From NCBI GenBank assembly GCA_964360785.1, contig CAYHXX010000002.1, positions 28,107 to 92,106 of the forward strand: a stretch of DNA of 64,000 nucleotides, in the 5' to 3' direction. The position numbers and the translations under genes are program-made. Position 1 is the stretch's first letter; every line of letters begins with the position of its first letter. The stretch is from an uncultured Gammaproteobacteria bacterium. GTDB taxonomy: Bacteria; Patescibacteriota; Microgenomatia; Woykebacterales; RBG-16-39-9b. Shown in pieces: positions 7,072-64,000 of this stretch. A model generated the notes under the pieces. The model was given only the letters and a program-made list of their open reading frames with translations. It had not been told where the DNA came from and ran no database searches.

Positions 7072-7115
7072 AAGCTAATTCAGTATAATAAAGACACTAG
7101 ATAATACTATGGGTA

Positions 7116-10186: not shown

Positions 10187-10299
10187 ACCGATGTAGCTCA
10201 GTGAAGAGAGCGCCATTTAAGTCTTGCTTTGTTCGGTGGACGGGACCGAGCAACAGAGAGCATTGGAGGTCGGAGGTTCGAATCCTCCCATCGGTACCA
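10187..10299 (+). tRNA. aberrant 113-nt tRNA-like gene with an insertion of about 37-40 nt between the D arm and T arm; isotype undetermined
   Basis: Canonical acceptor ACCGATG/CATCGGT, D arm GCTC-AGTGAAGA-GAGC, T arm GGAGG-TTCGAAT-CCTCC and CCA end, but 59 nt where an anticodon arm and variable loop would normally take about 22 nt. Confidence 0.5.
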
Positions 10300-39644: not shown

Positions 39645-39709
39645 AGTTTGAAAAGATAAAGGTTTAGGGCGGGTGGGAGGATACTTTGCATTGCTTTCTC
39701 CTCCCACCC
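39645..39709 (-). terminator. intrinsic terminator (11-bp stem GGGTGGGAGGA/TCCTCCCACCC) downstream of the 50-aa ORF on the minus strand
   Basis: Long GC stem at 39671-39709 followed on the minus strand by a T-rich tract. Confidence 0.4.
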
Positions 39710-39745
39710 ATGTGCCCCGCATGTTGTCGTCGCCGGCGTACCTGG

Positions 39746-39898
39746 TTAGCGCTTCTGAGCGGCCAGGGCCCGACAGGTCTGGGTGATCGCGTCGCCGTTG
39801 CCGTACACCCGTGTGGCAACACCACCCGGGAGAACGATCATGCGCGACGGGCCGGTGTTGAAGCTCTTGTATGATACCTTCTGACCAGAACGTGACAT
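39746..39898 (-). CDS. G+C-rich small ORF (about 50 aa, MSRSGQKVSYKSFNTGPSRMIVLPGGVATRVYGNGDAITQTCRALAAQKR); below the ORF-track length cutoff
   Basis: Consensus SD: AGGAGG lies about 8 nt upstream of the ATG. Followed by a terminator. No family recognised. Confidence 0.3.
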   Translation of the reverse strand: MSRSGQKVSYKSFNTGPSRMIVLPGGVATRVYGNGDAITQTCRALAAQKR

Positions 39899-40088
39899 GT
39901 TGGCGGGACCTCCTGTAAAAGCTGAGTCACCTCATTTTGGTGTCTCAAACCTCACTACTAGATAGGGAGATTTCAGATACCAAGACCTCTCTCAAAAAGC
40001 CTGATGCACCACTCAATCTTGATAAAAAGTATAGCACACTTTAGTCCTTTTGTCAAGTACTATGGGTTGTTCTCTGGGTTAGTGGTGA

Positions 40089-53874: not shown

Positions 53875-54312
53875 AGGATGAGATTTATTCTAAAACATCC
53901 TTTAGCAATTTTTCAAGGGGTACTTTTGAAAATGAAAAACGACAGCAAGCTTGTAGGCTAACGCTGTCGTTTGTTTCTAGTCGTCCGGGTCTCCATTCTG
54001 CCGTGTCAGAATTTCGCGGAGACCCGGTATAGGCGAACGAAACCAGTCTTCTGATCCATCTCCATCTGTTGCAACACCTTTTGAGTCAAGCTCGAAGGTG
54101 GAACAGACTTCATCGACGGACCAGTCGCTCTGTCGCTGCCTCGCTCCTCATTAAGGATTAACACGGTACATCCTGGGTGCGGACTACAATATAACATAAA
54201 ATTAAGAGTTTGTCAATACTATGGGTTACAGTTGTTTACTTTAGTTACGAAAAAAGGGCCTCATCAGAAGCCCTTTTTCTTGACACATGCAACTTGCTAC
54301 TTGTAACTTAGT

Positions 54313-56447: not shown

Positions 56448-57803
56448 TTAGTTTGCGGTTACCGATGATATCAGGCTGTATTTTTTAAGCACTGCGGTTA
56501 GCTTTTTGTCCAAATCCTTAAGCTGTCCTGAAGCCGATCCACCTGTTTCTACCTCCAAAACTACATTTTTGAATTCGGTTACGATATTGTCATTTAAACC
56601 TTGGTCGTACGTATCACTGTGCAAATACCAACTTCTTGCACTCGGAGCTTGCACAAGGTAGGCCGCCAAGTAGGGGTTGGTTGTCTGCTCTTTGGCCATA
56701 TCGACTCGGGGGAAGGCTCTACCGAAAATATTTTGCTCACTCTCATACTTAAAAACTTCCCGCAAAACTTCCTTTGAAGTCAGGTAGGCGGCTAATTTCC
56801 AACTAGCTTGTTTTTGATTACTTTTTTCCGAAACTCCAATGGCCCAGTAGCTTCCCCAGGTAACAGTTTCCGAATCTGGAAGCTGTGGGGTCGGGGCAAC
56901 ACCAAAATCAAGTTTTAGGTTTTCTTTTTTCAGTGTTTCCAGCAGGGTGTGGATCTTCTCTGCTGGCAAAATAATCATGGCTGTCTTACCCGTAGAGAAA
57001 GCAGCGATACTATTTGGCAAGGTGTTATCCCAGATCTTGTCCTCTTTCGAGAATTTCAGATAGCCATCAACGGCGTCACTGACAAGATTTGTTCCGCGTG
57101 AGCCTTTGTTATCAAGGATATTTAGTTTCCCATTGTTGACAAATGCAACACCGTTTTGCAGCAAAAAGAGCCCAATTATTTCCGAAAAATTCTCAACGTT
57201 GTTTACTGTACCCAAGGCAATTGCTGAGTTGAGGATACGTTGTTTGTCCCGGATAGTGAGGGCTGGACCATAAACTTGACGGAGTTGGGCCCAAGTTGTC
57301 GGTGCCTCTTTGAAGTTGGACGAAGCAAATATTGATTTATTATAAAGCAGGGCAAGCCCATCAATCTCCAAGGGAAATCCTCTGTAAGAACTTCCGAGTT
57401 TCATATCGGTTTTTGTGATTGGGTAAAAAGTTTTTTCGTATTCGATAGCACTCATAACACTCTCTGGGAGCGAGGCTAAGCTTTTGCCCAACTCAGGACC
57501 CCAACCGCTGTGCCACCAAAAAAGGTCTGGGGTAGTATCTTTGTTCACAAGGTCAGCTTTCAAAGTTGGAAAATAATTTTCCTTTTGCCGTTGTTCGTAT
57601 TCAATCGTAATCTCGGGATTTTTTTCTTGAAAGTCTTTTTTTATCGTATTAAAAACTACTGGGTCCCAAAAACCAACTACTTTGAGGAAAATTGGTTTGG
57701 GCTCACTTTCTCTTTTGAATACAAGGGTGAGGATAAAGTAGGTAACTACAAGTGTAATGAGGAATAAAACTATGTAGAGTATTTTTGTCTTGGCAGTAGA
57801 CAT
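56448..57803 (-). CDS. extracellular solute-binding protein (ABC transporter SBP family 1-like)
   Basis: N-terminal TM/signal anchor. Size and composition typical of sugar-binding SBPs. No permease adjacent. Confidence 0.45.
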   Translation of the reverse strand: MSTAKTKILYIVLFLITLVVTYFILTLVFKRESEPKPIFLKVVGFWDPVVFNTIKKDFQEKNPEITIEYEQRQKENYFPTLKADLVNKDTTPDLFWWHSGWGPELGKSLASLPESVMSAIEYEKTFYPITKTDMKLGSSYRGFPLEIDGLALLYNKSIFASSNFKEAPTTWAQLRQVYGPALTIRDKQRILNSAIALGTVNNVENFSEIIGLFLLQNGVAFVNNGKLNILDNKGSRGTNLVSDAVDGYLKFSKEDKIWDNTLPNSIAAFSTGKTAMIILPAEKIHTLLETLKKENLKLDFGVAPTPQLPDSETVTWGSYWAIGVSEKSNQKQASWKLAAYLTSKEVLREVFKYESEQNIFGRAFPRVDMAKEQTTNPYLAAYLVQAPSARSWYLHSDTYDQGLNDNIVTEFKNVVLEVETGGSASGQLKDLDKKLTAVLKKYSLISSVTAN

Positions 57804-57814
57804 GAAATTATTTT

Positions 57815-58687
57815 TTACTTTATTCTGTTTAAGTACTCTTTCAAGGAAGCTGCTATATCTTCTCGTTTCAAACCAAACTCAATATTGGCCTCGATAAATC
57901 CAAGTTTGTCTCCAATGTCATAATAGCGTGCGTTTTCAACTAGTACCGTGTAGACTGGCTCGTTTTTAATTAGTTCTGAGATCGCGTCGGCCAGCCAGAT
58001 TTCACCGGATTTACCAGGTTGCAAGTTGTCTAGATATTTCCAGATCGAGGGTGTAAAAATGTAGGCTCCATGAGTAGCAATGTCGCTTGGCGCCTCATCG
58101 GGGGAGGGTTTTTCAACTATTTTCTCTATTTGGTAGATGTTGCCTTCGATATGCTTTACTTGTGCAATTCCGTATTTACTCAGAGCCGTTTGGTCCGTAA
58201 TTTTAACCCCACTGATCATACTTACTTGATACTTGTCGTAAGCATCGATTAGCTGCTTCAAACGCGGGGGTTCAGAGTAAATAAACTCATCTCCCCAGAC
58301 AACTGCAAAAGGCTCATCTTCAACCAAGGGTTTTGCTGAGATAACCGGGGAAGCGTTACCATAGGGTCCTTTTTGACGAACGTAAATAAAATTCGCCATC
58401 GTCGCAATATTTTTAATCTCTTGTGCTTTTTCAGTTTTTCCAGTTTCGATCAGGAAATCTTCGAAATCTTTACTTCGATCAAAATGGTCCTCAATCGCTC
58501 TTTTGCTGCCCCCCGTAACGATGATGATATCCTTGACTCCTGAGGCTACAATTTCTTCGACGACATACTGGATCACAGGTTTATCCACAATTGGTAACAT
58601 TTCCTTGGGCATGGCTTTGGTTGCCGGTAAAAACCTTGTTCCGAGGCCAGCGGCAGGGATGATTGCTTTGGTGATTTTATTGCTCAT
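57815..58687 (-). CDS. galU: UTP--glucose-1-phosphate uridylyltransferase
   Basis: KAIIPAAGLGTRFLPATKAMPKEMLPIVDKPVIQY. Confidence 0.8.
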   Translation of the reverse strand: MSNKITKAIIPAAGLGTRFLPATKAMPKEMLPIVDKPVIQYVVEEIVASGVKDIIIVTGGSKRAIEDHFDRSKDFEDFLIETGKTEKAQEIKNIATMANFIYVRQKGPYGNASPVISAKPLVEDEPFAVVWGDEFIYSEPPRLKQLIDAYDKYQVSMISGVKITDQTALSKYGIAQVKHIEGNIYQIEKIVEKPSPDEAPSDIATHGAYIFTPSIWKYLDNLQPGKSGEIWLADAISELIKNEPVYTVLVENARYYDIGDKLGFIEANIEFGLKREDIAASLKEYLNRIK

Positions 58688-58749: not shown

Positions 58750-59328
58750 GTGGAAAAAATAATGATTAAAAATCCTTCACAACGAGTCGGAGTTTTTATA
58801 GATGTCCAAAATCTTTATTACTCGGCCAAAAATTTATATAACGCAAAAGTAAATTTCGGAAAAATACTGGAAAAAGCAGTCGCTGGTCGACAGCTTATCC
58901 GCGCTTTTGCCTACGTAATCAACGCAGATATCCCTGAGCAGCAATCTTTTTTCGAAGCCCTAGCCAAAGCTGGTTTTGAGGTAAAAAGTAAAGATATTCA
59001 GCTATTTCCTGGTGGGGTCAAAAAAGGCGATTGGGATGTCGGTATTGTCATTGATATGATCCGAATGGGAGCAAAACTTGATGTCATGGTGTTGGTTTCT
59101 GGAGATGGGGATTACGTACCAGCTCTTGAGTACTTGCGCAATCAGGGACATTTGATCGAAGTAATTGCTTTTGGAAAAAGTACTAGTGCAAAATTGATTC
59201 TTGAAACAGACGAGTTTATTGACCTTGATCAGGACAGCGCTCACTATCTGATTGCCAATCGAAGGCCGCCTTACGCCAAAAGAGGTTATACAAAACCTCC
59301 CAGCAACGAGTCTTTGTCCGAATTATAG
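58750..59328 (+). CDS. NYN/LabA-like domain protein
   Basis: VGVFIDVQNLYYSA N-terminus and LVSGDGDY motif. Confidence 0.6.
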   Translation: MEKIMIKNPSQRVGVFIDVQNLYYSAKNLYNAKVNFGKILEKAVAGRQLIRAFAYVINADIPEQQSFFEALAKAGFEVKSKDIQLFPGGVKKGDWDVGIVIDMIRMGAKLDVMVLVSGDGDYVPALEYLRNQGHLIEVIAFGKSTSAKLILETDEFIDLDQDSAHYLIANRRPPYAKRGYTKPPSNESLSEL

Positions 59329-59426
59329 AAAGTTCCAAGGAAAAGCAACCAAAACCGCTAGTCTTCTTAGACGCAAGTCTAAAAGAGACTTATAGTGTTG
59401 TTCGGTTTTCTTTGGGTACTCTGAAA

Positions 59427-59686
59427 TGAAAAAGCCCGCCCGTACGACCAACCAGCAGGTTGTTTTGTGTCGTACGGAACGGGCTCTTGTGACTTCCGGT
59501 TCGTGTTCAGCTCGTCAGGGTGATGCCTGAGTTGCTGAGTTCAGTGCCGGCGCCGCGCACGCGAGATCAGCCGGACGCGCCGTCGATCTCCAGGTCGAAC
59601 AAGCTTTCGAAAATCACCTGGGACAACCGTCTCATGAAAGGTATCCTTTCCTCGCTACTGAACCAGTTCACTCGAACCAGTCGATA
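59427..59686 (-). ncRNA. candidate structured sRNA (about 260 nt), unassigned, with its own near-consensus promoter and intrinsic terminator
   Basis: Minus-strand TTGACA(59716-59721)-17-TAGAAT(59693-59698). G+C-rich body with no ORF of 60 aa or more. Terminator hairpin at 59433-59485 plus U-run. Confidence 0.45.
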
Positions 59687-59745
59687 AAAAATATTCTAGC
59701 ATATCTTAGCAAATCTGTCAACTATGGGTCTATTGGGATTTTTGT

Positions 59746-60069
59746 TTGGAAATAAAAACGCGGTCAGTGGAAAGCTCATCCGGTACAGCCGATACACAGC
59801 CCGAGCCGGATAATTCTGTTGCCATCCACTAACCGCGGCCGACACTATTCGACTGATTGCTGGTCGCAGGAGCACCTACTGGTATGCAGGTGTGTCGGCT
59901 CTGCCCTCGACCTAAACGTTCGTGTAGCTGTTACGGCTACAGGCGGTGCCCATTTGCCGTACCCTCCTTAGACATGCGCCCTTCTTCCAAACTTAGGTGG
60001 AAGCACCTAGTCGCAGATATCTAGCTTCGCCTCTGTATCTCCCATACGAGCGCTTGCCTACCTGCCACA
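59746..60069 (-). ncRNA. candidate structured RNA (about 320 nt) with RNase P RNA-like motifs (possible reduced rnpB)
   Basis: Minus-strand promoter TTGAAG(60100-60105)-17-TATAAT(60077-60082). RNA contains AAGGAGGGUACGGCAAAUGGGCACCGC...GUAACAG and ACAGAAUUAUCCGGCUCGGGCU, resembling RNase P CR-II/III and CR-V. CR-I was not found. Confidence 0.35.
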
Positions 60070-60141
60070 ATTTCTAATTATATTCCTTTGTCAAGTCTTC
60101 TTCAAACCTAACTGTGTCCAAAATATGCTAAGATATCTGGG

Positions 60142-61125
60142 ATGAAAATTCTTGGTATTGAAACTTCTTGCGATGAAACCGCCGCGGCAATAGTCGAAGA
60201 TGGTACAAAAATTCTATCCAACACCGTCTCCTCTTCTCTACCCTACCACGCCGAAACTGGCGGAATAATTCCGGAAAAAGCCGCGCGCGAACAACTTAAA
60301 GCTATGGTTCCAGTACTGGAAAAAACTTTTAAAGCCGCTTCTCTCTCCCCTGCCTCTATCGATGCAATTGCTGTTACTAGCGGCCCTGGACTATTTGGTT
60401 CTCTTATTTTGGGGGTTGAGTCGGCTAAATCTCTCGCCTTTGCATTGGATAAACCAATTGTTCCAATCAATCATTTAGTCGGACATATCTATGCAAATTG
60501 GCTTGAAAATCCTGACCCACCGACTTTCCCAAATCTTACTTTGATTGTTTCTGGCGGACATTCGGAGCTAGTTTTGATGAGCGATCACGGAAATTTTGAA
60601 TGGCTCGGCGGGACTCGTGACGACGCTGCTGGAGAGGCTTTTGACAAAACGGCCCGCGTTCTGGGACTTACTTATCCTGGCGGCCCGGCAATACAGAAAG
60701 CAGCTGGGAGAGTAAAAAAACTAGACAACTTTCTTCCCCGTCCACTTTCAACCAGTTCTGATTTTGATTTTTCTTTTTCTGGGCTTAAAACTGCGGTAGT
60801 AAACCTAGTTGGCGAGAAGAAGTTAACAGATGATGAGATTTCCCAATACGCGGCTGAGATTCAGGAAGCAATTGTTGATTCTTTATTGATCAAAACTATA
60901 AAAGCAGCTGAGAAATATCAGGTTAAAGAGTTGCTGCTAGCAGGCGGGGTTGCAGCCAACACTCGTCTGGTTGAAAAAACAAAAGAAAAATTCAAAGGTG
61001 TTGTCCACTCTCCCTCTCCCAAGCTTTGCATTGATAATGGAGCAATGATCGCCGCCGCGGCTTTCTTTAACTACAAACCAATTCCATGGCAAGAAATCCT
61101 CGCCGACTCCGGTCTTTTCTTTTAA
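60142..61125 (+). CDS. tsaD: tRNA N6-adenosine threonylcarbamoyltransferase TsaD
   Basis: MKILGIETSCDETAAAIV, Kae1/YgjD family. Confidence 0.9.
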   Translation: MKILGIETSCDETAAAIVEDGTKILSNTVSSSLPYHAETGGIIPEKAAREQLKAMVPVLEKTFKAASLSPASIDAIAVTSGPGLFGSLILGVESAKSLAFALDKPIVPINHLVGHIYANWLENPDPPTFPNLTLIVSGGHSELVLMSDHGNFEWLGGTRDDAAGEAFDKTARVLGLTYPGGPAIQKAAGRVKKLDNFLPRPLSTSSDFDFSFSGLKTAVVNLVGEKKLTDDEISQYAAEIQEAIVDSLLIKTIKAAEKYQVKELLLAGGVAANTRLVEKTKEKFKGVVHSPSPKLCIDNGAMIAAAAFFNYKPIPWQEILADSGLFF

Positions 61126-61142
61126 CTTCTCACCACCGTTGC

Positions 61143-61250
61143 GAGCACGCGTTCCCTTTACCCAGCTTTGTAACCGGAGCGCTGGAAATCCTTTTAGCGA
61201 CCTACGAGCATGCGTTCGCAGTTTCCAGCTTTGTAACCGAAGCGTTAAGA
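61143..61250. repeat. tandem imperfect repeat of about 61 nt (2 copies) in the tsaD-valS intergenic region
   Basis: CGAGCACGCGTTCCCTTTACCCAGCTTTGTAACCGGAGCG and CGAGCATGCGTTCGCAGTTTCCAGCTTTGTAACCGAAGCG. Confidence 0.5.
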
Positions 61251-61457
61251 AAATTTCCTGTAGATTTTCGTTGTGAAACAAAATTTCAAATGTTTGACGA
61301 AAAATTGAGGAGTTTTTGAAATTTAGAAAATCGAAAGAAAATTTTTAGCCAGAGGTTACCCGCTGGCCGCTTTGGCGTCACCCTTTCGGCAAAAGGTGAC
61401 TTAAGCTAACAAAATCTCTGTTTACGAAGCCCAACTTCTTCGATATAATCCTCCCCA

Positions 61458-63596
61458 ATGGATAAAGTTTACAACCACAAAGAAATCGAAGACAAATGGT
61501 ACTCGTTTTGGGAAGAAAAAGGCTATTTTCAGCCTAATAATTCCGAAAAATCTTTTTCGATCATCCTTCCCCCACCCAATGCCCACGGTCGTTTGCACAT
61601 TGGTCACGCTATGTATGTGATTGAGGATATTATGATCCGTTACCACCGGATGCTGGGTGAATCCACCCTTTGGCTACCGGGAGCCGATCACGCTGGGATT
61701 CTCACTCAAGTAGTTTACGAACGAGAACTCGAAAAAGAAGGTAAAACCCGTCACGACCTCGGCCGGGAAGAGTTTTATAAACAAACCTATGATTTTACTC
61801 AAAAGAACAAAAAAGAAATGTACGACCAGCTTCGCGCCATGGGTTTCTCTTTGGATTGGTCTCGTGAGAAATTTACTTTGGACTCAGAAATTTCAAAGAT
61901 AGTCTACTCGACTTTCAAAAAACTCTATGACGATGGTTTGATTTATCGCGGTACTCGCATGATCAATTGGTGCCCCCGCTGCGCTACTGTTCTTTCTGAT
62001 TTGGAAGTCGTGCACAAAGAAAAGGAAGGCAATCTTTGGTTTATCAAATACCCGATCAAGTCAGATAACAGAGATCAGAAATCAGATATCAGTCAGGAAA
62101 CCTTTATTACTGTGGCGACAACTCGTCCGGAAACTATGCTGGGAGATACCGCAGTAGCAGTTAATCCCGAAGATACCCGCTATAAAGATTTTGTTGGAAA
62201 AACAGTAATACTACCGCTGATGAACCGGGAGATTCCAATTTTGGCCGATTCGTACGTTGATCCGAAGTTTGGAACCGGTGCAGTCAAAATTACCCCGGCG
62301 CATGATCCGAATGATTATGAAGTTGGTTTGAAACACAAACTTGAGCAAATCCAAGTCATTGGCCAAGACGACAAAATGACATCAAAAGCTGTTGGGTACT
62401 CTGGTTTGGACAAATACGCTGCTCGAAAGCAAGTTGTAGCTGACCTTGAAAAACTTGGACTGGTGGAAAAGACGGAACGTTATGTTAACAATATTGGTGT
62501 TTGTGAACGTTGCGCTACCGTAATCGAACCACTAGTGTCCAAGCAATGGTTTATTGCAGTTAACAAAACGGGAAAATCTGGCAAAAACCTAGCTAAAGAC
62601 GCCCTAACCGCGGTCAAATCCGGCAAGATCAAGGTAATTCCCTCTCGTTTTGAGAAAATTTACTACAACTGGATGGAAAATCTACACGATTGGTGTATTT
62701 CCCGCCAGCTTTGGTGGGGCCACCAAATTCCGGTTTGGTACCGTGGAGAGGAAACTTATGTTGGGGTTGAAGCACCGGCTGGTGAAGGCTGGGTTCAGGA
62801 TCCGGATACGCTCGATACCTGGTTCTCGTCGGGACAGTGGCCGTTTACGACTTTAGGCTACGGCCAAAAGGATGATTTTGATTTCAAAAAATTCTATCCT
62901 ACCTCAGTCATGGAGACTGGCTACGATATTCTCTTTTTCTGGGTCGCCCGCATGATCATGCTTGGTCTGTATGTAACTGATGCTGTTCCATTTGAGACTG
63001 TTTACCTTCATGGTCTGGTTCGGGACGAGAAGGGACAAAAAATGAGTAAAAGCAAAGGCAACGCTATTGACCCGTTAATTGCCGCTGATCAGTACGGTGC
63101 TGATGCCGTCCGTATGGCCCTGGTTTTCGGTACTGGAGCTGGAAACGATGCCAACATTGGTGAAAGTAAGATCAAAGGTATGCGTAATTTTACCAATAAA
63201 CTCTGGAATATTGGCCGTTACGTGATCGATATGAAGCCCGCCTCGCCGGCAGGCAGGCCTGAGTATATAAACTATGAGGCAAAGCCAAATGAGACTGACA
63301 AACTAATCTTAGCTGAGCTTGAGTCAGTCAAGGCTAGTGTCAATAAAGCTTTTACTGACTATAGGTTTTCTCAAGCCGCTGAGGAGCTCTACGACTTCGT
63401 TTGGCACAAATTCGCAGATAGATACATTGAGGAATCAAAAAACCGTAGAAATGAGGCTCAGAGTGTCCTGGAGCAGGTTTTGGAAGAGTCCCTCCGCCTA
63501 CTTCATCCTTTCATGCCTTTAATCACCGAAGAGATCTGGCAAAAGCTCCCTCGCAAGAAGGGCGCTTCGATCATGGTCTCCCCTTGGCCAAAGTAA
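61458..63596 (+). CDS. valS: valyl-tRNA synthetase (short form, 712 aa, lacking C-terminal coiled coil)
   Basis: PPPNAHGRLHIGHAM (HIGH), KMSKSKGN, typical ValS N-terminus. Confidence 0.85.
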   Translation: MDKVYNHKEIEDKWYSFWEEKGYFQPNNSEKSFSIILPPPNAHGRLHIGHAMYVIEDIMIRYHRMLGESTLWLPGADHAGILTQVVYERELEKEGKTRHDLGREEFYKQTYDFTQKNKKEMYDQLRAMGFSLDWSREKFTLDSEISKIVYSTFKKLYDDGLIYRGTRMINWCPRCATVLSDLEVVHKEKEGNLWFIKYPIKSDNRDQKSDISQETFITVATTRPETMLGDTAVAVNPEDTRYKDFVGKTVILPLMNREIPILADSYVDPKFGTGAVKITPAHDPNDYEVGLKHKLEQIQVIGQDDKMTSKAVGYSGLDKYAARKQVVADLEKLGLVEKTERYVNNIGVCERCATVIEPLVSKQWFIAVNKTGKSGKNLAKDALTAVKSGKIKVIPSRFEKIYYNWMENLHDWCISRQLWWGHQIPVWYRGEETYVGVEAPAGEGWVQDPDTLDTWFSSGQWPFTTLGYGQKDDFDFKKFYPTSVMETGYDILFFWVARMIMLGLYVTDAVPFETVYLHGLVRDEKGQKMSKSKGNAIDPLIAADQYGADAVRMALVFGTGAGNDANIGESKIKGMRNFTNKLWNIGRYVIDMKPASPAGRPEYINYEAKPNETDKLILAELESVKASVNKAFTDYRFSQAAEELYDFVWHKFADRYIEESKNRRNEAQSVLEQVLEESLRLLHPFMPLITEEIWQKLPRKKGASIMVSPWPK

Positions 63597-63700: not shown

Positions 63701-64000
63701 CTAGCGCAGCGGCGAAATGCCGTACTGGCCGAGGAACTCGTTCGCCACGACGACGGGCAGAGACCTATTGACCACTGCCTCCAACGCAAGTCTCGTCACT
63801 GTGGCCTCGAACTCCGCGCGGGCCTCGAACTCCTTGCGGAAGAACCGTCGGAGGTACCGCTTCCACCATGCCGGTACCTGAACGACGCCGACATACTCGA
63901 TGTACCTTTGTAGGCGGTCGTAAACCTGCTGGTAGCGGGTCAGCAAGACCCACTTCCAACCCTCGACCTCCCAGTCGATGTCGGCGCTTGGGTGGCGTGG
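63701..64000 (-). CDS. G+C-rich hypothetical protein, 3' part; the gene may start beyond the window end
   Basis: Minus-strand ORF ending at 63701 (…EFLGQYGISPLR) with GC-rich third positions. Reading frame open to 64000. Confidence 0.4.
   Translation of the reverse strand, partial: PRHPSADIDWEVEGWKWVLLTRYQQVYDRLQRYIEYVGVVQVPAWWKRYLRRFFRKEFEARAEFEATVTRLALEAVVNRSLPVVVANEFLGQYGISPLR

Follow-up and report, generated by a model that had tools for sequence, protein, structure and literature searches.

Described systems that lie closest to the locus considered here include dual-function small RNAs, such as Staphylococcus aureus RNAIII (which encodes the 26-aa delta-toxin) and Bacillus subtilis SR1, and type I toxin–antitoxin loci, made up of a small toxin mRNA and a regulatory RNA. 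Another such group is that of orphan structured non-coding RNAs, which were reportedly found via long GC-rich intergenic regions (GC-IGR) of AT-rich bacterial genomes (PMC8632094, PMC11109978). A further point of comparison is RNase P RNA, encoded by rnpB. Some RNase P RNAs in genomes of the Candidate Phyla Radiation (CPR) are known to be so diverged that they score below Rfam thresholds, with P12–P14, P18 or the UGG motif missing, and circularised CPR genomes show that a diverged rnpB may need lowered thresholds to be detected (PMC8172020). The locus that we analyzed is the 813-nt gap between the genes for an NYN-domain protein and TsaD, within a 64,000-nt stretch of contig CAYHXX010000002.1 (the window). 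Its host is an uncultured ultra-small bacterium, probably of the CPR.

Two distinct genes for small RNAs lie on the minus strand of the gap, and each has a promoter and a terminator to itself. We refer to them as RNA-A (59746–60069, about 320 nt) and RNA-B (59427–59692, about 255 nt). Our overall reading, to which we assign a probability of roughly 0.6, is that RNA-A is an uncatalogued folded RNA and RNA-B a small-ORF RNA (ORF, open reading frame). A preliminary description of the same DNA had proposed two structured minus-strand RNA genes in a GC-rich region free of ORFs of 60 aa or more, with two promoters, a strong terminator at 59433–59485 and a possible 22-codon ORF in RNA-B, and each of these elements was borne out. 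There is no ORF of at least 60 aa in 59.33–60.14 kb, the longest ones touching it being 59, 55 and 50 aa, and the GC content of 59.4–60.1 kb is 0.50–0.58 versus 0.43 for the whole window. A promoter scan of the region returned seven promoter-like sites compared with 3.2 ± 1.7 in shuffled sequences. The two proposed promoters obtained the two best scores and are conserved in every homologue. Both RNAs are predicted to fold more stably than every shuffled counterpart, with minimum free energy (MFE) z-scores of −3.85 for RNA-A and −3.81 for RNA-B. Moreover, promoter hexamers, terminator hairpins and gene order are retained in syntenic loci of related genomes. RNA-A is like the GC-IGR orphan RNAs in being a GC-rich island in a 43% GC genome, with its own promoter, an intrinsic terminator, compensatory helices, a pseudoknot and no adjacent same-strand gene to regulate. 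It differs from them in matching none of the 4227 Rfam families covered by our search, in its restriction to one narrow clade and in the presence of a Shine–Dalgarno-like box.

To see these genes in their evolutionary context, we turned to TsaD relatives. A protein search provided graded relatives at 60–89% identity, and twelve of the loci, the window's own included, were looked up exactly. All twelve share the gene order solute-binding protein, nucleotidyl transferase, NYN protein, gap, TsaD, aminoacyl-tRNA synthetase, with gaps ranging from 77 nt to 1187 nt. Both RNA-A and RNA-B are present in the window and in L090, L086 and L092; RNA-B only in L083, L095 and L179; a form C RNA (376–388 nt) in L087, L094 and L089; a form D RNA (about 545 nt) in L178; and nothing in L177. 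The RNA-A family, forms C and D included, was traced across ten syntenic loci with TsaD proteins 76–89% identical. All gap RNAs of the related loci retain a promoter close to consensus as well as a terminator. In the close relatives L083, L095, L177 and L179, RNA-A is missing from the syntenic gap, the one locus examined for this. In the TsaD tree, L179, with RNA-B only, is basal; one clade has forms C and D only, and in the other RNA-B is found either alone or together with RNA-A, or the gap is empty. This patchy spread suggests that the RNA-A and RNA-B genes are dispensable and subject to fast turnover. Both are confined to a narrow clade, probably of Patescibacteria. Large TsaD-based scans of genomes and metagenome contigs yielded, among the matches listed, relatives of at most 60% identity with no homologous RNA and no synteny, and phage and plasmid records showed no similarity to the RNA-A/RNA-B locus. 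A 17-mer from the RNA-A 5′ end had 16 matches in viral contigs, all due to chance and with no extended similarity.

RNA-A is transcribed away from tsaD, its promoter (TTGAAG-17-TATAAT at 60077–60105, minus strand; scan score 10/12, second best of the region) lying back to back with the tsaD start at 60142. The corresponding promoters read TTGAAR/TTGATA-17-TATAAT in L086 and L092 and TTGCTC-18-TATAAT in L090, and the stretch CTTGACA..GGAATATAATTAGAAAT is nearly invariant among homologues. The 5′ end was placed about 7 nt past the −10 box. Homologues in L090, L086 and L092 were detected by nhmmer with E-values of 5e-48 to 6e-30, and together the four form-A sequences are 78% identical in the alignment. 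The consensus model, obtained with RNAalifold and supplemented by one added pairing, comprises 81 pairs in 10 helices, with standard pairs in 95.3% of cells. Nine pairs are changed on both sides versus 3.6 ± 1.4 in shuffled alignments, none of 500 of which reached nine; slid controls gave 0–5. Several invariant G-U pairs are compatible only with the minus strand. The consensus fold joins the 5′ end to columns 154–157 and leaves the 3′ third as a self-contained terminator hairpin. The 5′ domain is closed by the 4-bp helix H1 (60069–60066 with 59924–59921) and encloses H2, H3 and H4. The H3 region (59984–60012) offers two mutually exclusive hairpins, ACUAGGU/ACCUAAGU and CUUCCA/UGGAAG, and one compensatory change among four sequences is a weak indication for each. 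The 3′ domain (59750–59837) is formed by H8 (59837–59821 with 59775–59759), a long hairpin that encloses H9 and H10 and is followed by UUUUUAUUU, the U tract occupying 59758–59750. We found no target complementary to the conserved 5′ segment within the window.

Between the two domains lies the core that defines the family (59838–59914). It starts with UA and continues with the 5′ strand of helix Pd (59912–59904), 3–4 nt, GCCGACAC (59899–59892), hairpin Pe, the 3′ strand of Pd (59870–59862), an A-rich linker of 12–16 nt and GUGUCGGC (59845–59838). The same succession, UAGG-helix-GCCGAC-hairpin-helix-linker-GUCGGC, is common to forms A, C and D (about 300–325, 376–388 and 545 nt, respectively), is present in all eight of these RNAs and represents an H-type pseudoknot. 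In a motif-anchored alignment of seven RNAs, the 9-bp helix Pd shows compensatory changes at six of nine positions, and the GCCGAC/GUCGGC pairing (the 8-bp GCCGACAC/GUGUCGGC) is invariant except for one G-U. Forms A, C and D and the RNA-B set could not be aligned by MAFFT, and motif anchors and a covariance model were used instead. A model built from form A alone retrieved form D (30.7 bits, E = 8.5e-5); it had no match in distant loci or elsewhere in the window. At the level of sequence, the similarity between A and C reaches a z-score of only about 3. We treat the three forms as one RNA family.

The forms also share a putative translation start. A hairpin of the CUUCA...UGAAG type occupies the same relative place in A, C and D, about 15–20 nt before a GGAGG box. 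In RNA-A the box is AAGGAGGG (59962–59969), with an AUG 9 nt further on. Its variants are AAGGAGGG, GAGGAGGG, AAGGAGAG or AUGGAGGC in form A, AUGGAGGG in form C and GGGAGGG in form D. Reading the sequences by eye, we found the box followed by a start codon and 9 or 23 codons in forms C and D, and in form A by 13 codons in the window, by two in both L090 and L086 and, in L092, by no more than GUG-UGA. Judging from its sequence, the box of RNA-A may bind ribosomes. We conclude that RNA-A represents a new structured RNA family, uncatalogued and of narrow distribution, whose pseudoknot core is well supported. Our literature search found no description of RNA-A/C/D or of RNA-B.

The order of elements in the core recalls the hepatitis delta virus (HDV)-like ribozyme fold, P1-P2-hairpin-P1′-linker-P2′. 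HDV-like ribozymes have a 7-bp P1 that starts from a G-U at the cleavage site, a 3-bp P3, an L3 loop forming P1.1 and a catalytic C in J4/2. Here, Pd has 9–11 bp and starts with G-C, the hairpin has 4–18 bp and no GG follows the 3′ strand of Pd to form P1.1. On the basis of these predicted helix lengths and the missing P1.1 partners we rejected this candidate; the HDV-type Rfam model had no match in the region.

RNA-B has the best-scoring promoter of the region (59693–59729, minus strand; 11/12 with TG), composed of ACCCATAGT, TTGACA, a 17-nt spacer and the extended −10 box TGCTAGAAT; its segment TTGACA-17-TAGAAT spans 59721–59693. The pattern CCYATAGT-TTGACA-17/18-TGCTAnnnT is found in six of the seven homologues, and L083 has CTTATAGT. 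Transcription probably starts near 59686. RNA-B homologues occur in L092, L083, L095, L090, L086 and L179, with a mean column identity of 54%; the conserved structure is limited to the terminator (consensus fold, −21 kcal/mol). Conserved in position are also a 5′ hairpin (59660–59682), kept in every homologue with a different sequence, and GC-rich hairpins. The terminator (59429–59486) has a stem of about 16 bp (59486–59469 with 59448–59434), an inner hairpin and a final UUUUU, and shows compensatory changes among homologues. A simple terminator scan missed it, giving only its inner hairpin on the plus strand.

The small ORF of RNA-B (59567–59635, minus strand) consists of ATG, 21 codons and TGA (MRRLSQVIFESLFDLEIDGASG) and is preceded by the Shine–Dalgarno region GAGGAAAGGA (59644–59653). 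All seven homologues have GGAGG, AAGG or AGGA before the start codon (five flagged by a regular expression, the window and L179 judged by eye), and in all seven an ORF of 22–28 codons stands in a conserved place and ends in UGA. The start codon is ATG in four, GTG in two and TTG in one. The GC content at the third codon position (GC3) is 0.65–0.86, the highest of the codon positions in all seven (with one tie), compared with a genome GC3 of 0.42. TGA terminates every one of these ORFs versus 10 of 52 ordinary genes. From one homologue to another, serine codons switch between the TCC and AGC families and arginine codons between CGT and AGG. The predicted peptides start with a basic N-terminus, turn hydrophobic in the middle and are acidic in the C-terminal half. 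Their sequence is poorly conserved, and they have no Pfam or NCBIfam match. RNA-B is most likely a separate, fast-evolving small-ORF RNA. Since its sequence similarity to forms C and D is marginal (z about 3), we treat it as a family of its own and not as a paralogue of RNA-A. Compared with RNAIII and SR1, the combination of a structured, regulatory-type RNA with a Shine–Dalgarno sequence and an ORF of about 20–40 codons is alike and fits forms C and D (376–545 nt) as well as RNA-B. On the other hand, there is no homology in sequence or structure, base-pairing targets are not evident, the peptides are unconserved and acidic rather than amphipathic and cationic, and the form-A ORF has just 1–13 codons. 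We also considered the small ORF as a precursor of a modified peptide (RiPP) and rejected this idea: no maturation enzyme is encoded nearby, the neighbors are housekeeping genes and the peptides match no family.

Could RNA-A nevertheless be a known RNA in disguise? The preliminary description had raised the possibility of a reduced rnpB. This reading merited a real test because rnpB of CPR bacteria can be diverged, and diverged CPR RNase P RNAs are known to escape Rfam thresholds (PMC8172020). The RNase P-like strings that prompted it, AAGGAGGGUACGGCAAAUGGGCACCGC...GUAACAG and ACAGAAUUAUCCGGCUCGGGCU, are present as written; ACAGAA..CCGGCU and GGUACGGC..GUAACAG stand in the right order in the RNA-A of the window, and no rnpB was found elsewhere within its 64 kb. 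What failed was their conservation in the three homologues: ACAGAA occurs only in the window sequence and is not kept in L090, L086 or L092, the homologous readings being AAGACAACUUUAUCCG, ACAAGAAUUUAUCCG and CAUAAACUUUAUCCG, and L092 is without the GGUACGGC...GUAACAG segment. There is no string of the GGAAAGUCC type, corresponding to conserved region I (CR-I), in RNA-A, and the CCGG of the supposed CR-V pairs locally (AUCCGG with CCGGAU 20–30 nt downstream, helix H9) instead of with a CR-I strand. The 5′ and 3′ ends of RNA-A do not pair with each other, so there is no P1, and what the conserved long-range GCCGACAC/GUGUCGGC pairing encloses is just a hairpin plus one strand of a helix instead of a specificity domain. 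RNA-A resembles RNase P RNA in its size of about 300 nt, its GC-richness, its own promoter and terminator, its long-range pairing and its host group, where rnpB can escape standard models (PMC8172020), but differs in topology, in the lack of conserved CR-I, CR-IV, CR-V and P1 and in not being conserved at its locus, as it is missing in L083, L095, L177 and L179. Infernal searches point the same way. With permissive filters (E ≤ 10), cmscan of 59200–60300 produced zero matches to any Rfam family, RNase P included; at gathering thresholds nothing was found in the region; for the whole window at E ≤ 1 there were only tRNAs and chance matches; and in four homologous loci (E ≤ 1) the gap had no match, to RNase P or otherwise. 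Covariance models of 6S, signal recognition particle RNA, T-box, riboswitches, OLE, GOLLD, ROOL, HEARO and raiA did not match the RNA-A/RNA-B region, nor did those for tmRNA, and the window contains no tmRNA according to ARAGORN. Labeling RNA-A as RNase P RNA is wrong; even a highly diverged version is extremely improbable. Only slightly less improbable is that RNA-A acts in cis as a leader, either a riboswitch or an attenuator, with its terminator controlling read-through into the RNA-B ORF. The RNA-A terminator lies only about 25–55 nt upstream of the RNA-B promoter, H3 has its alternative hairpins and the complexity of RNA-A, pseudoknot included, is aptamer-like. However, in every genome RNA-B is preceded by a conserved near-consensus promoter of its own, and it exists without RNA-A. 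In forms C and D the ORF is upstream of the pseudoknot module, and downstream come the terminator and then a convergent gene. Moreover, no riboswitch or T-box model matches the RNA-A region or the homologous loci.

Several observations weigh against our reading that RNA-A is a folded RNA family and RNA-B a small-ORF RNA. For RNA-A, the numbers are small: four form-A sequences and eight in the A/C/D family (about 6–7 distinct), which all come from a single narrow clade. Covariation, though real, is thin, and the shuffle statistics are inflated by relatedness. Because the GCCGAC/GUCGGC pairing is invariant, the pseudoknot rests on conserved complementarity, not on covariation. In forms A, C and D, anything from 3 to 9 nt separates GGAGG from the start codon, and the ORF of L092 is a bare GUG-UGA. 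For RNA-B, mean BLOSUM scores are 19.2 in the proposed frame versus 20.6 and 19.5 in the others, frame-shifting indels separate the ORFs of L090 and L086, and open frames about 25 codons long are not unusual in GC-rich sequence. In-frame similarity no higher than in other frames, together with the indels, a GC3 unlike that of genes in this genome (mean 0.42) and the highly structured nature of RNA-B, favors the alternative that RNA-B is purely non-coding and that its Shine–Dalgarno-like box, start codon and frame are untranslated by-products of GC-rich structure. We regard this alternative as doubtful, though worth keeping in mind. The Shine–Dalgarno sequence, a properly spaced start, 22–28 codons and a stop recur in all seven RNA-Bs even though their flanks are barely alignable; the three-base periodicity seen in GC3 is unexpected for non-coding RNA; and, apart from the terminator, there is no conserved structure to explain the retention. 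In the window–L092 pair the proposed frame does stand out, scoring 32 versus 20 and 19. All in all, we lean toward the ORF being translated, with its exact sequence mattering little. The last point against our reading is that RNA-A and RNA-B show no pairing beyond chance in the four genomes (RNAduplex), the energies falling within the shuffle range in three and at its edge in L092. The same result bears on a toxin–antitoxin-like or dual-function module, in which RNA-B would encode a toxic or effector peptide and RNA-A would be its RNA regulator. As in type I systems, there is a small ORF in a folded, strongly promoted mRNA beside a second RNA, the Shine–Dalgarno sequence of RNA-B being partly in a hairpin. 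The locus also varies widely between close relatives (A with B, B only, C, D or nothing), RNA-A never occurs without RNA-B (four of four cases), and the basic-hydrophobic-acidic layout of the peptides could suit an effector. On the other hand, the two RNAs are not complementary, and they follow each other in tandem on the same strand instead of being antisense. There is no convincing promoter for an antisense transcript, the plus-strand match at 59368–59396 falling in the terminator tail of the NYN gene. The peptides are not hydrophobic throughout, lacking a membrane-spanning stretch (no continuous run of about 18 hydrophobic residues) and having acidic C-terminal halves, and RNA-B stands alone in three genomes, which would be odd for a toxin without antitoxin. 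We therefore consider such a module very unlikely.

Returning to the reading that we prefer, the gap houses two independent, strongly promoted and terminator-bounded small minus-strand genes. RNA-A would be a stable, folded, trans-acting non-coding RNA with three parts: a multi-helix 5′ domain, the central pseudoknot module and a long 3′ hairpin doubling as terminator. Sister lineages have the longer forms C and D, with the same module and the same GGAGG box. RNA-B has the features of a small mRNA, namely a 5′ hairpin, a Shine–Dalgarno sequence, a start codon, 22–28 codons, UGA, GC-rich hairpins and a long terminator. We infer that its ORF is translated and that what matters is translation as such or else an acidic peptide under loose constraint. 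Going further, RNA-A and RNA-B might both engage ribosomes through a Shine–Dalgarno sequence and a start codon, while their structured 3′ parts stabilize them or bind a partner. That both RNA types work by engaging ribosomes is a guess from sequence features, and on balance an unlikely one. Across the few genomes available, forms C and D always occur without RNA-B and form A always with it, in three of the four genomes with RNA-A and RNA-B the RNA-A ORF has shrunk to 1–2 codons, and every genome but L177 keeps at least one such small ORF at the locus. This pattern is suggestive of one small ORF per locus being enough, with ribosome engagement as the common property, an idea that is at best as likely as the previous guess. 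Less likely still is that RNA-A/C/D and RNA-B constitute, in ultra-small groundwater bacteria, a new class of ribosome-engaging RNAs characterized by a start site and an arbitrary ORF of 1–28 codons. If this were true, these would be expected to be abundant and very stable RNAs in which the pseudoknot domain serves as a stabilizing or partner-binding module. Initiation or termination on the RNA, not the peptide, would then regulate translation capacity or the fate of the RNA, and the exclusive use of UGA stops in RNA-B would point to release factor 2.

The genomes of CPR/Patescibacteria are small, and hardly any of their content in non-coding RNA has been explored so far. Here, an uncatalogued structured RNA family lies beside a conserved small-ORF RNA, with fast turnover between close relatives. 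In this lineage, standard annotation may be overlooking a set of small RNAs or small-ORF genes with strong expression. The outcome for RNA-A also indicates that in CPR a short motif resemblance to rnpB is insufficient and that the conservation of each motif among homologues needs checking. The RNA-A family is a good candidate for RNA-family curation.

The window contains at least two further orphan GC-rich units with the RNA-B type of promoter. The element ACCCATAGT has seven matches in the window versus 1.9 expected, minus-strand copies being located at 1073–1080, 7106–7113, 40059–40066, 54218–54225 and 59721–59728. In at least four minus-strand promoters it sits 0–3 nt upstream of a TTGAC −35 box, and at the RNA-B promoter it is also kept in related genomes. 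It may be a lineage-specific upstream promoter element or a regulator site. We discarded the idea that CCYATAGT represents inverted repeats of a mobile element: the motif adjoins several promoters, and where it occurs close to the NYN stop codon it is part of the tail of the NYN terminator. One of the additional units, at 53935–54190 (minus strand), has a ACCCATAGT-TTGACA-17-TATATT promoter, a strong terminator and ends that pair with each other (MFE z = −6.2); it has no Rfam match, and the SurA-like gene downstream of it is served by a separate promoter. Another, at 39680–40040 (minus strand), shares this promoter type; its folded 5′ leader, about 130 nt long, precedes AGGAGG and an ORF of about 49 codons (MSRSGQKVSYKSFNTGPSRMIVLPGG...), followed by the terminator GGGUGGGAGGA/UCCUCCCACCC. 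The ORF, which has no Pfam or NCBIfam match, is likely an unannotated small-protein gene. In the tRNA cluster, a fifth tRNA-like gene (10187–10296, plus strand) scores 51 bits with the Rfam tRNA model and is not called by ARAGORN. Its anticodon arm carries an insertion of about 38–48 nt, much shorter than a group I intron would be, and every tRNA of the cluster encodes its CCA end.

As for the neighbors of the gap, genes for a solute-binding protein (56448–57803) and a nucleotidyl transferase (57815–58687) are on the minus strand, and those for the 192-aa NYN-domain protein (58750–59328), TsaD (60142–61125) and a class I aminoacyl-tRNA synthetase (61458–63596) are on the plus strand; all are housekeeping genes. 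A verbatim copy of the window TsaD is found on Hainich groundwater contigs from well H52 (0.1-µm filter fraction), and its named relatives at 45–57% identity belong to Woykebacteria, Saccharibacteria, Berkelbacteria and "Patescibacteria", plus some Dehalococcoidia. The NYN protein is a stand-alone LabA-like predicted nuclease (Pfam E = 4.6e-35) kept in all related loci. Since these include the RNA-less L177, its adjacency to the RNAs looks like plain synteny and not a functional link. An extended −10-like element, TGCTAAGAT (60113–60141, plus strand), ends about 8 nt before the tsaD ATG, and equivalent boxes, TGTGTTAAAAT or TGTTAGAAT, precede tsaD in all related loci. This suggests that the tsaD mRNA, transcribed back to back with RNA-A, has no leader or almost none. 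Downstream of tsaD, the 333-nt gap that precedes the aminoacyl-tRNA synthetase gene (61126–61457, plus strand) has no T-box or other Rfam match; it contains two CCAGCTTTGTAACCGRAGCG copies and a hairpin near its end, and a related gap exists in L177. Finally, an ORF at 63703–64000 (minus strand) that runs off the window end has a GC content of 62% versus 43% for the window and may be foreign DNA.

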